From: Escherichia coli
Lineage (GTDB): Bacteria; Pseudomonadota; Gammaproteobacteria; Enterobacterales; Enterobacteriaceae
DNA length: 64,000 nucleotides
Assembly (NCBI RefSeq): GCF_003334765.1
Contig: NZ_QOWT01000021.1
Strand: one strand, 5' to 3'
Position numbers and translations under genes: made by a program. The notes beneath the pieces are model-generated. The model saw nothing but the letters and a program-made list of their open reading frames with translations. It was not told the DNA's origin and made no database searches. The number at the start of each line of letters is the position of its first letter. Within the stretch, counting starts at the first letter, position 1. Of this stretch, positions 17,418-22,457 are shown in pieces.

Positions 17418-17969
17418 TTACAATTTTTTAATTATTCTGGCTGGATTACCGCCCACGACAACGTTGTCCGGGACATCTTTTGTGACAACTGCACCTGAGG
17501 CTACCACGACGTTATCACCAATGGTCACACCAGGGTTAATGACCGCGCGTCCGCCAATCCAGACGTTATTACCGATGGTGACGGGTTTCCCCAGTTCAGC
17601 ACCGCTATTACGTGCTACAGGGTCGATGGGATGTGTTGCCGTGTAGATATGAACGCCTGGTGCCAACATACAGTTATCACCGATGCGAATAGGGCAGACA
17701 TCAAGCATCACGCAATCGAAGTTGGCGAAAAAATTATTACCGAGAAAAATGTTATAGCCATAGTCACAGCGAAACGTTGGCTCAATATAAGCCTCTGTCA
17801 CCTGACCGAATAGATCAGCGAGAATTTGCTGGCGTAATGTGTGCTCTTCCGCCAGGGAATGATTGTATCGGTGAATAAGCTGACGAGCGCGCAGGCGATC
17901 GCGAGATAACGTCTCATCTGCCGAGCGATACAACTCACCAGCAATCATCTTTTCTTTTTCTGTGCTCAT
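17418..17969 (-). CDS. maa: maltose O-acetyltransferase (hexapeptide-repeat acyltransferase)
   Basis: 183 aa [24 protein letters not shown].. with left-handed beta-helix hexapeptide repeats. Confidence 0.93.
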
Positions 17970-18140
17970 TACTGACCTCCGGTTGCTGAAAATGCGGCAA
18001 CACAGTAAGACGAAAAGTCAGTGAAGAGAACGTTCCCATTACATCTGTGTGATAAAGATCACATAGGGTATGTCTTCATGGCGAAAAAGTATAAAATTCT
18101 TAATAAACAGCCGGTTATAGCTCCGAAAGCGAATTATTTA

Positions 18141-18359
18141 TTAGCGAATAAATTTCCATACTGAGGAAGGGATCTTGTCGTACAGTTTATTCATGGTCAA
18201 TTCGGCGAGGCGGTGATCTGCGGCTGAGTAAAATACCGCCAGTTCATTATCTGATAATTCGTATTTATTTTTCTCGATAACACGCTCCAGCGTGTCAATT
18301 GTCTGGCAACGACGTAAACGCATTAAATAATCGGTTTTCGTTAAAGGTTTTTCGGACAT
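18141..18359 (-). CDS. hha: haemolysin expression-modulating protein Hha (H-NS co-regulator)
   Basis: ATG at 18359 ([72 protein letters not shown]) 72 aa; ORF-track entry is an in-frame upstream extension into tomB. Confidence 0.95.
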
Positions 18360-18384
18360 ACTTCTACCTATGGTTGTAATAATT

Positions 18385-18759
18385 CTAACAAGATAAACTC
18401 GCAGGATTCTCTTTCGTCGCATTGACAAAACAACGGAATAGTCGATTACCTGACTTCCGCCATTTCTGAAGATCCTGCATATTAATACCATAACTACTGA
18501 ACAACATAAAGGTGTCATCCAGATATTCGTCGATCTGCTCAATGAGCTTATTGTCTTCATTATACTTAATTTTGTAATTAAGTGCGAAGGTCGCAATATG
18601 CTCAATCAGTTCATTCAACTGGAGGTTGATCGCCGAGGTTGGGTCGTTTACCCAGCCATGATTGCTTTCTTCAAGGTTTGCAAGGCAGTCATGATACAGG
18701 GTTTCACAGAGAAACTTAAGCTGTGCGATATCATGTCTTTTGGGTGAGTATTCATCCAT
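18385..18759 (-). CDS. tomB: Hha toxicity modulator TomB (YbaJ)
   Basis: 124 aa [34 protein letters not shown].. 25 nt upstream of hha on the same strand. Confidence 0.93.
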
Positions 18760-19263
18760 AACGCGTCCCCTTCTTAGCGGTTGAACTAACGGACACCTTT
18801 CGGGATGGAAAAAACTTACTGACCTGGACTTGCCCTCTCGTTTGTTAGCTTAACTATAAGCCACTCTTTGCAGGTTTTCATCGCATTATTACGAAAAATT
18901 ACAATTAGGAAGGAAGCGGGACAGGACTCACTTTTTCATACTAGCACTAACCCGCAGCAGGTAAAAGCAGTTTGCTCGAACTATTCATAACATTTCAGGA
19001 TTATCGCCAGATGAAATTGGTGACACTAATACCAGGATTGCTCTGAATATGACGTAATAACCGAGGAATGAATAAAGAATTACCGCAAATAATTAAGAAT
19101 AGCCTCTAAATGATTATGGATTATTAAATCTATTAGCGCTACTTAATATAAATTAACTAACAATCAGTATTTTTTATGAATTTTATCCGTGGTTAATACT
19201 GGTTTTCGTATGAGATCCTGAGTTGGTGGTTCAATTACTCCTTAATGTTCGTAGGTTATGCAT

Positions 19264-19285
19264 AAAAAAGGCCGCTTACGCGGCC
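19264..19285 (-). terminator. rho-independent terminator of acrAB
   Basis: Minus-strand GGCCGCGTAAGCGGCC hairpin (19270..19285) followed by U6 (A-run 19264..19269 on plus strand), 20 nt after acrB stop. Confidence 0.7.
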
Positions 19286-19304
19286 TTAGTGATTACACGT
19301 TGTA

Positions 19305-22457
<3,153 letters not shown>

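Follow-up and report, generated by a model that had tools for sequence, protein, structure and literature searches.

Position, length and composition of the acrB-tomB spacer

The analysed window is a 64,000-nucleotide stretch of Escherichia coli DNA, in which all genes of the locus are carried by the minus strand: acrB (19305-22454), tomB (18385-18759) and hha (18141-18359). K-12 MG1655 coordinates are obtained by adding 461949 to those of the window, with 8 mismatches found in 50 kb. The spacer between acrB and tomB (18760-19304) is 545 bp long. It ranked longest of the 41 gaps between genes that were counted over the first 50 kb, the median being 127 bp and the next two gaps 315 and 261 bp. 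Its GC content was 37.8%, against 45.4% in the remaining spacers taken together and 52.8% in the whole window, and the core of the spacer (19030-19200) had a GC content of 27.5%. An AT-rich stretch of at least 200 bp well under the genome GC, which is a feature of H-NS/Hha-silenced regions, was present in the spacer. These values demonstrated that the long AT-rich gap described in the initial annotation is real, and the interval singled out there, 18760-19263, was found to run exactly from the tomB ATG to the acrB terminator, the T-run of which ends near 19264. The MG1655 RefSeq annotation contains no feature inside the spacer.

Inspection of 73 Enterobacteriaceae species showed that the spacer occupies the same place throughout, with a length of 435-559 bp and a GC content of 35-40%. 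The long AT-rich acrB-tomB spacer is family-wide and not an oddity of E. coli. Conservation in the 73 species was concentrated in 18760-18910 and in short distal blocks, which were separated by variable, indel-rich stretches. This arrangement of conserved segments within changing DNA points to protein-binding sites, rather than to a coding or structured-RNA gene.

At the acrB end, an intrinsic terminator hairpin was located on the minus strand at 19268-19287 by the terminator scan and as inverted repeat I6, with the sequence AAGGCCGC-GTAA-GCGGCCTT followed by a T-run. The hairpin was conserved to more than 90% in the 73 species. The terminator-proximal 205 nt was the sole folded fragment more stable than its shuffles (z = -2.3), presumably due to this hairpin. 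The adjacent segment 19195-19264 was found in Escherichia only: its conservation was 0-10%, the alignment showed a gap there in Salmonella, Citrobacter, Enterobacter and Klebsiella, and the segment differed even between E. coli and other Escherichia lineages. An 'orphan' Rho-dependent termination region has been reported on the minus strand at 19184 (K-12 481133; Adams et al. 2021, supplementary file 2, PMC7815308). In the same study, bicyclomycin approximately doubled the reads within the 800 nt downstream of 19184, indicating that some transcription enters the spacer; this effect could as well be explained by acrAB read-through.

Promoter, start site and leader of tomB-hha

The promoter scan revealed a sole minus-strand site in the spacer, P1 (18853-18881), which consists of the -35 hexamer ATGAAA (18881-18876), a 17-bp spacing, within the 16-18 bp usual for sigma-70-type promoters, and the -10 hexamer TATAGT (18858-18853), and which has 9 of 12 matches. 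TATAGT was present at the -10 place in all 73 species. Identical hexamers, ATGAAA-17-TATAGT, have been reported for the 'constitutive promoter' of tomB-hha by gSELEX with the RpoD holoenzyme (in vitro, sigma-70), and a sigma-S ChIP-seq peak at 18747-18942 of the window overlies P1. In the supplementary TSS table of Kim et al. 2012, the tomB TSS is placed at 480019 (NC_000913.2), with a 5' UTR of 87 nt and an upstream sequence ending in TATAGTTAAGCTA. The mapped TSS corresponds to the A at 18846 on the minus strand, 7 nt past the -10 hexamer, which is within the 5-9 nt expected for a sigma-70-type promoter. The orthologous TSS of K. pneumoniae has a UTR of 97 nt. The TSS tables of E. coli and Klebsiella contain no other start in the spacer than that at 18846; the E. 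coli table is gene-assigned and may omit orphan or antisense starts. As previously reported for Salmonella, only the proximal one of the predicted promoters was active, and the two upstream promoter fragments gave no GFP. A fragment from -198 to -1 has been deemed enough for a tomB-hha promoter fusion.

It had been presumed that the spacer holds the tomB-hha promoter, and this was borne out by the scan, the TSS of Kim et al. 2012 and the RpoD gSELEX data. The long leader presumed along with it had to be abandoned: because the TSS is at 18846, the leader (18760-18846, minus strand) is 87 nt long, similar to the 97 nt of Klebsiella, and not about 500 nt. It contains the Shine-Dalgarno sequence AAGGGGA (18772-18766) and a pyrimidine motif, CCATCCC (18808-18802).

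The suggestion that the spacer may hide an independent sRNA gene, or a riboregulator acting in cis such as a riboswitch, thermometer or attenuator, draws on its unusual length and conserved blocks, and on the invariant leader motif CCAUCCC, which can pair with GGGGA(U)G of the Shine-Dalgarno region and could in principle modulate translation. Nevertheless, an Rfam search of 17900-19500 at a permissive E-value gave a best match of 19 bits, the gathering score being 51, and the weak matches all fell on the acrB terminator, being terminator look-alikes far under the gathering score. No promoter and terminator delimiting a transcript of 50-300 nt, as would suit an sRNA, were found in the spacer, whose sole promoter-like site belongs to tomB and whose sole terminator-like site belongs to acrB; neither published Term-seq 3' ends nor an extra TSS were recorded there. 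Excess RNA stability was observed neither in the leader (z = -0.12) nor in the upstream 416 nt (z = +0.09). RNAalifold of 32 diverse leaders gave no covarying leader structure (-5.4 kcal/mol, 9 pairs, covariation term -0.19), and the one pair with a compensatory change was located in the coding part. In the consensus, pairing of the leader was limited to 4 bp between UCCC of CCAUCCC and GGGG of the Shine-Dalgarno sequence. Because both sides are invariant, the alignment says nothing for or against such anti-Shine-Dalgarno pairing. The single candidate helix of the distal block, described below, barely exceeded shuffled sequences. With an ordinary leader of 87 nt, folding z-scores near zero and no Rfam match near the gathering score, the reading as an sRNA or a riboregulator is largely refuted, and we consider it highly improbable.

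It had also been stated that no ORF exceeds about 13 codons. This was correct for ATG ORFs of the sense strand that lie downstream of the TSS but not otherwise, since the ORF list included a minus-strand ATG ORF of 21 codons (18816-18881) and, on the plus strand, ORFs of 24 and 40 codons that begin with TTG. These ORFs of 21-40 codons, together with a conserved ATGAAT at 18988-18983, might suggest an unannotated small protein. However, the 21-codon ORF starts within the -35 hexamer, upstream of the TSS, and its frame comprises 6 codons in Citrobacter and Salmonella. The frame opened by ATGAAT has 13 codons in K-12, and the sequence downstream of it lacks conservation and contains indels that would shift the frame, their lengths not being multiples of three. 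The other ORFs would need TTG starts on the untranscribed strand. None of the ORFs examined was conserved in the alignment, and the MG1655 RefSeq annotation, as noted above, is empty at this place. A small protein encoded in the spacer is very unlikely.

Conserved blocks upstream of the promoter

Directly upstream of the -35 hexamer, pattern matching detected a CpxR-type direct repeat, GTAAT-TTTTC-GTAAT, at -56 to -42 (18888-18902, minus strand). The sequence GTAATTTTTCGTAAT at 18902-18888 matched 8 of the 10 specified bases of the direct repeat GTAAA-N5-GTAAA, the CpxR consensus. Because the pattern was matched 56 times in 64 kb, compared with 42 expected, which is the chance level, the consensus match by itself was rejected as uninformative evidence, and its weight comes from conservation and the Yersinia parallel only. 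The repeat sits in a near-invariant block, AATTGTAATTTTTCGTAATA (18906-18886), which is at least 90% conserved in the 73 species. In Yersinia, CpxR~P was reported to raise promoter activity and, by EMSA, to bind a motif located 56 bp ahead of TSS2 of ymoB. Both tomB and hha are included in the CpxR regulon of RegulonDB, and tomB in the CpxR iModulon. As tomB was absent from the direct targets that ChIP-exo of CpxR detected during ethanol stress, the case for direct binding in E. coli is built on the entry in RegulonDB, the EMSA from Yersinia and the sequence. Taken together, the GTAAT repeat is probably the E. coli CpxR site.

Further upstream, a match to the PdhR box, ATTGGTGACACTAAT, was observed at 19016-19030, its centre lying at about -177 from the TSS. 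It differs by one mismatch from ATTGGTNNNACCAAT, the operator palindrome tested being ATTGGTnnnACCAAT. No other match with at most one mismatch was present in the 64-kb window, for which it was calculated that about 0.14 would be expected per 64 kb. The alignment showed that the box is specific to E. coli and not conserved beyond it. tomB-hha has been reported as a PdhR target. In the 2020 PdhR gSELEX study the peak centre was inside the acrB 3' end (window ~19597), about 570 bp from the box at 19016-19030, and another, poorer box (8/14) was named. From the sequence match, the box at 19016-19030 is a candidate PdhR site.

A different palindrome was indicated at 19033-19046 (minus strand) by motif scoring across the 73 species. 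The consensus of the RcsAB box is TAAGAATATTCCTA, a 14-bp quasi-palindrome TaAGaatatTCctA. In most other genera the position is occupied by TAAGAATATTCCTG, TAGGAATATTCCTA or TAAGAATATTCTTA, at a near-fixed distance from the ATG; at least 12 of 14 bases of TAAGAATATTCCTA were matched in 49 of the 73 species and at least 11 of 14 in 63, and shuffled spacers reached 12/14 in 1.2% of trials. The K-12 sequence, TCAGAGCAATCCTG, matched 9 of 14, which is the shuffled-spacer level, so the RcsAB-like box is present in other genera and not in this window.

Several other blocks were recognised in the alignments, all on the minus strand. At 18983-18997, a conserved block detected as inverted repeat I1 reads CTAACnnnATGAAT (K-12 GAAATGTTATGAAT), and its K-12 version repeats the block at 19032-19049 imperfectly and in inverted orientation. 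On the opposite strand it gave an IHF-like impression, which was an impression only. Fur-box, PmrA-box and IHF readings of the AT-rich motifs, made by eye, were discarded, the matches being imperfect and not conserved. At 19071-19109, two direct repeats with ATTCTTA/ATTCTTT (D1), 20 bp apart, were moderately conserved. The distal block at 19112-19184 comprises AAAATCATAAAA, CTTATTGT, TTTATTT, AATAAG and TATAAT (AATAAT in K-12), in which CTTATT and AATAAG, separated by about 28 nt, are inverted copies of each other. When this helix was followed through the alignment, 68.8% of cells were paired compared with 66.2% in shuffles, with weak covariation. A 9-bp CTTATT/AATAAG helix acting as an RNA or cruciform element was rejected, as the outer three pairs were unpaired in most of 56 sequences and the score was barely above that of shuffles. 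No TSS was found within 19112-19184 in the E. coli and Klebsiella tables. A Salmonella fragment around the predicted promoter p622, which by a position estimate may correspond to this block, was reported to give no GFP.

These elements raised the question of a second promoter upstream of P1, which under unsampled conditions, e.g. when H-NS silencing is relieved, would yield a tomB-hha mRNA with a long leader, the added leader serving post-transcriptional control. In our own scan a weak candidate, P2 (TTTACC-16-TAGTAT, 8/12), was found at 18938-18965 (minus strand), with a start near 18930 and a leader of about 170 nt. The other candidate is the TATAAT-type element of the distal block, near 19117-19124, for which the leader would be about 350 nt. 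The predicted P2 start lies about 84 nt upstream of the mapped TSS of P1, reminiscent of Yersinia ymoBA, where TSS1 is 82 nt upstream of TSS2. TAAAAT or TATAAT occurs at the P2 place in Citrobacter and Klebsiella, the distal block includes a conserved TATAAT-like hexamer, and the doubling of reads past 19184 by bicyclomycin would also fit, although acrAB read-through accounts for it equally. But the TSS tables of E. coli and Klebsiella record neither of these starts, and the -35 elements are poor, with 2-4 of 6 matches. Enterobacter and other Escherichia carry neither TAAAAT nor TATAAT at the P2 place, the distal block of K-12 has AATAAT in place of TATAAT, and the Salmonella fragments with the two upstream predicted promoters gave no GFP. 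The would-be leader showed no excess structure (z = +0.09), and the sequence between the blocks was unconserved with many indels. A second promoter is therefore regarded as unlikely.

The opposite possibility is that the spacer past about -60 is mostly functionless filler, a decaying remnant of an AT-rich, probably horizontally acquired tomB-hha island that was kept as deletions are rare. Its Escherichia-specific, unconserved segment 19195-19264 agrees with this, as does the decay in E. coli of motifs found family-wide: the RcsAB-like box is reduced to 9/14, AATAAT stands in place of TATAAT, and CTGATT in place of CTTATT. A natural isolate with IS1 in place of 18817-19196 is viable, and the -198 to -1 fragment was deemed enough for the promoter fusion. 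Nevertheless, a length of 435-559 bp has been kept in 73 species though change has saturated the sequence separating the blocks; as far as 340 bp upstream, short blocks were more than 90% identical at many positions; and the spacer contains the best PdhR box of the 64 kb and is flagged as H-NS-bound. We consider it doubtful that the upstream DNA is mere filler.

A more specific but tentative proposal, to which we give roughly a one-in-several chance, is that the distal half (about -190 to -340 from the TSS) may form a conserved module that controls the Hha/TomB operon from a distance. The RcsAB-like palindrome, the phased ATTCTTA repeats, CTAACnnnATGAAT and CTTATT...AATAAG would tie the production of Hha directly to Rcs signalling (capsule, envelope), for which DNA bending or a second, silent promoter might be the means. 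In Escherichia the module would have partly decayed and the PdhR box arisen instead. If so, the inputs to Hha would have been rewired between genera. The distal conservation map, including the RcsAB-like palindrome, the CTTATT/AATAAG block and the Escherichia decay, is new but minor, being undescribed in the literature examined.

Control of tomB-hha and comparison with known systems

Hha is a partner of H-NS in the silencing of horizontally acquired and virulence genes, and the control of hha-tomB therefore matters for how enterobacteria tune silencing. Binding of nucleoid proteins to the spacer and autoregulation by Hha had been put forward as possibilities in the initial annotation, and both found support in published work: the RpoD gSELEX table flags the tomB<acrB spacer 'HNS', and Hha has been reported to repress its own operon, as inferred from microarrays. 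As for a single promoter near tomB with a silent and unconserved remainder, which the same annotation had set against a hidden function, the single promoter and, in the datasets examined, the silence of the rest were found; the rest was not unconserved, as operator-like blocks are conserved far upstream.

Considering these results, we are confident that the spacer is the conventional, already characterised control region of tomB-hha, with one near promoter, an 87-nt leader and upstream protein-binding DNA. Transcription of acrAB would end at the intrinsic terminator at 19268-19287, with the Rho zone near 19184 as a backup. The single near promoter, ATGAAA-17-TATAGT, would direct synthesis of the tomB-hha mRNA from the TSS at 18846, with an ordinary 87-nt leader and a normal Shine-Dalgarno sequence, and envelope stress probably activates P1 via the CpxR-type repeat (-56 to -42) directly upstream of the -35 hexamer. 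The remaining ~350 bp of untranscribed AT-rich DNA (27-37% GC) may act as a loading platform for H-NS and, via H-NS, for Hha, which would explain the reported Hha autorepression. The same ~350 bp would also carry operator-like sites, namely the PdhR box in E. coli and the RcsAB-like palindrome and other blocks in other genera. We infer that the length of the spacer exists to hold an H-NS filament together with distal operators.

In this scheme the TSS, the hexamers, the binding of sigma-70 and sigma-S polymerase, the H-NS flag, the Cpx and PdhR listings, the autorepression and the Rho zone come from published data, and the outlying length and composition, the pattern of conservation across the family and the lack of any RNA-gene signature from our own analysis. 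Its essentials, i.e. the promoter position, the H-NS association, the Cpx and PdhR inputs and the autorepression, were already known. The conservation map is a modest addition; it suggests that the upstream DNA has additional operators, decayed in E. coli but strong in Salmonella, Citrobacter, Klebsiella and Enterobacter.

The tomB-hha (ybaJ-hha) region of E. coli K-12 is the identical locus, with which the hexamers, the TSS, the 87-nt UTR, the H-NS flag, the CpxR and PdhR listings and the Hha autorepression agree. Compared with the orthologous operon ymoB-ymoA of Yersinia pseudotuberculosis, the -56 offset is shared, the GTAAT-N5-GTAAT box of E. coli starting at -56. In contrast, the second mapped TSS of ymoB-ymoA, 82 nt upstream, has as its E. 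coli counterpart only a weak sequence candidate with no recorded TSS.

To our knowledge, TomB lacks a recognised DNA-binding fold. At type II toxin-antitoxin operators the antitoxin binds palindromes of its own promoter, and Salmonella TomB has been reported to bind the proximal promoter fragment, with palindromes between the -10 hexamer and the start site. A repeat search of the E. coli sequence revealed no notable palindrome between the -10 hexamer and the ATG, and TomB operator palindromes of the Salmonella type were accordingly rejected here. Hha-TomB is an atypical toxin-antitoxin pair, the antitoxin having been reported to act via oxidation (PMC5155140).

A general likeness was seen to the long AT-rich regions, silenced by H-NS, that lie upstream of stress and virulence promoters in enterobacteria, such as proU, bgl, csgD and hilA. 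With these the spacer shares a low GC content, a length well above the genome median, several transcription factor sites distributed across hundreds of bp, an H-NS flag and the occurrence of IS1 in natural isolates. Unlike those regions, it controls an operon that encodes the H-NS partner Hha itself, which would create an autoregulatory loop, the association with H-NS here being indicated by the table flag.

Position and composition of the acrB–tomB spacer

The spacer was found to span 545 bp (18760-19304) between acrB (19305-22454) and tomB (18385-18759), the latter followed by hha (18141-18359), with all three genes on the minus strand. The intrinsic terminator hairpin of acrB lies at 19268-19287, and the interval 18760-19263 considered in the initial annotation corresponds exactly to the stretch from this terminator to the tomB ATG. 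Window positions are converted to K-12 MG1655 by adding 461949; with 8 mismatches in 50 kb, the window is E. coli K-12-like. The proposal of an unusually long, AT-rich spacer was confirmed: the first 50 kb of the window contain 41 intergenic gaps with a median length of 127 bp, and this one exceeds all others (runner-up 315 bp). Its GC content was 37.8%, falling to 27.5% in a core at 19030-19200; the other spacers had 45.4% and the window as a whole 52.8%. No feature is annotated within the spacer in MG1655 RefSeq. The statement that it holds no ORF over about 13 codons was slightly loose, since mechanical ORFs of 21-40 codons are present, but none of them was conserved in the species alignments or lay on the mapped mRNA.

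The AT-rich island formed by the tomB-hha genes and the spacer (18000-19300) showed GC of 0.29-0.43 in 200-bp windows, against 0.46-0.58 in its flanks, maa and acrB. Such GC values are characteristic of DNA that is bound by H-NS and possibly of horizontal origin.

Promoter and transcription start of tomB-hha

The spacer is the already documented promoter region of tomB-hha. The promoter scan gave a sole sigma-70-like site, ATGAAA-17-TATAGT (18881-18853, minus strand), and identical hexamers form the RpoD-holoenzyme "constitutive promoter" of tomB-hha in Shimada et al. 2014 (PMC3946193). In the supplementary TSS table of Kim et al. 2012 (PMC3415461), tomB has a single TSS, at 480019 in NC_000913.2 (window 18846). 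Its 5' UTR measures 87 nt, the upstream sequence ends in ...TATAGTTAAGCTA, and no further entry lies within the spacer; the orthologous promoter is in use in K. pneumoniae with a 97-nt UTR (PMC3415461). The tomB promoter is also covered by a peak in sigma-S ChIP-seq (18747-18942 after conversion to window coordinates), and in Salmonella GFP was driven by the proximal promoter only, out of three predicted. The mapped TSS and the hexamers thus bear out the expected promoter, and the published TSS and promoter data indicate that the leader is short and ordinary rather than ∼0.5 kb, contrary to the long leader first supposed.

A weak candidate promoter, P2 (TTTACC-16-TAGTAT, 18965-18938), lies ∼84 nt upstream of the mapped TSS, where a second TSS (TSS1) has been reported for ymoBA, the orthologous Yersinia operon. 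Citrobacter and Klebsiella carry TAAAAT or TATAAT at this position, and the TSS tables gave no start there in E. coli or Klebsiella.

Two hha-specific starts are located inside tomB, at ∼18375 and ∼18474 (UTRs of 16 and 115 nt, PMC3415461), and a Term-seq 3' end lies 72 nt into tomB (18687), within a Rho termination region (PMC7815308); therefore hha and tomB may be partly uncoupled. IS1 was observed in two natural isolates. In FAM21845 (locus L082) the element separates the -35 of the tomB promoter from the -10, having inserted exactly between the two hexamers and duplicated 9 bp of target (18859-18867). In TUM13773 (locus L083) it takes the place of 18817-19196, so that promoter, TSS and most of the spacer are lost. 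A full-length spacer match was missing in ∼34 of 5424 complete genomes.

RNA features and conservation of the spacer

Rfam at permissive thresholds returned nothing beyond sub-threshold matches on the acrB terminator, and a second promoter/terminator pair was not found in the spacer. Adams et al. 2021 (PMC7815308) tabulate Term-seq and bicyclomycin data; no 3' end in the spacer is among them, and the sole spacer entry is a region of Rho-dependent termination at 481133(-), window 19184. Neither the leader (18760-18846) nor the 416 nt upstream of the TSS folded better than shuffles (z = -0.12 and +0.09). Across 32 diverse leaders, RNAalifold predicted in the leader only a 4-bp UCCC:GGGG anti-SD pairing, which is uninformative because it is invariant on both sides, and placed a short helix within the coding sequence. 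These results argue against the hidden sRNA or riboregulatory structure initially suggested. Membership of the spacer in an sRNA or riboswitch family was rejected, since the defining features tested were absent.

For comparison, 80 loci were fetched via TomB alignment, one genome per species, and the spacer statistics rest on the 73 in which both the end of acrB and the start of tomB could be located. The spacer measured 435-559 bp with 35-40% GC in these loci, and conservation centred on the acrB terminator, a core at 18910-18760 and short distal blocks. The nearly invariant core comprised AATTGTAATTTTTCGTAATA and the -35 and -10 hexamers, together with parts of the leader, namely CCATCCCGAAAGGTG and the SD. 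The distal blocks, set apart by unalignable, indel-rich sequence, comprised 19184-19112 (AAAATCATAAAA, CTTATTGT, TTTATTT, AATAAG and TATAAT), ATTCTTA repeats at 19109-19071, an RcsAB-box-like palindrome at 19046-19033 and CTAACnnnATGAAT at 18997-18983. Judged from the alignment, this mosaic has the look of protein-binding sites, not of a coding or structured-RNA gene. CTTATT and AATAAG, ∼28 nt apart in 19112-19176, form an inverted repeat with weak covariation and weak overall support; it is longer (8-10 bp) in some Citrobacter and Enterobacter lineages, where the arms differ in a seemingly compensatory way (AGTCTTAT/ATAAGACT versus AGACTTAT/ATAAGTCT).

Directly after the acrB terminator comes a 70-bp segment (19264-19195) that was confined to Escherichia; even here, E. 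coli and the other Escherichia lineages (loci L002-L005) differ substantially in it. The 5424 complete E. coli genomes were at least 90% identical to the window over the spacer. Locus L003, titled "Escherichia coli strain SCPM-O-B-8794", was only ∼75% identical; it clusters with Escherichia sp. E1V33 and E. whittamii and is therefore probably a mislabelled cryptic-clade Escherichia.

Candidate operators and known parallels

The consensus of the RcsAB box is TAAGAATATTCCTA. The 14-bp palindrome aligned at 19046-19033, ∼320 nt upstream of the tomB ATG, matched it at 12 or more of 14 positions in 49 of the 73 species, versus 1.2% of shuffles. It reads TAAGAATATTCCTG, TAGGAATATTCCTA or TAAGAATATTCTTA in most Enterobacteriaceae (loci L006-L081), and in Escherichia it has decayed to TCAGAGCAATCCTG, with 9/14 only. 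No direct link between RcsB and tomB-hha was found in the literature. A LolCDE inhibitor induces tomB 5.9-fold together with Rcs genes, which is equally compatible with Cpx control.

Pattern matching showed that the conserved block at -56 to -42 from the TSS is a direct repeat of the CpxR-box type, GTAAT-N5-GTAAT (18902-18888). The RegulonDB CpxR regulon includes tomB and hha, and the CpxR iModulon includes tomB; CpxR ChIP-exo under ethanol reported no peak for tomB. The offset of the E. coli repeat is the same as in Yersinia, where a motif 56 bp upstream of ymoB TSS2 is bound by CpxR~P, which raises promoter activity. As for PdhR, ATTGGTGACACTAAT at 19016-19030 was the only match to its palindrome with at most one mismatch in the 64 kb, and this candidate box was specific to E. 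coli in the species alignments. PdhR target listings include tomB-hha, but a 2020 gSELEX peak maps inside acrB, ∼570 bp from the box.

In the proposed mechanism, the intrinsic terminator halts acrAB transcription with Rho as backup, and tomB-hha starts at 18846 from a sigma-70/sigma-S promoter, which the neighbouring CpxR box probably activates. The AT-rich 350 bp upstream are most likely where H-NS filaments nucleate, with Hha acting as co-factor, and may additionally bear further operators. Nucleoid-protein binding, as anticipated, agrees with the H-NS site flag on the tomB<acrB spacer in Shimada et al. 2014 (PMC3946193). Such filaments with Hha would account for the reported increase of the ybaJ (tomB) transcript upon hha deletion; the Hha autoregulation thought conceivable is already published, as autorepression.

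The TSS, polymerase binding, H-NS flag, regulon listings, autorepression and Rho zone are all published, and the operator site assignments and the H-NS "platform" role are what we infer here. Minor additions of the present analysis are the conservation map of the distal blocks and the finding that the RcsAB-like box has decayed in Escherichia. The tomB-hha promoter region mirrors the Yersinia ymoBA promoter, and the spacer resembles other long H-NS-silenced upstream regions.
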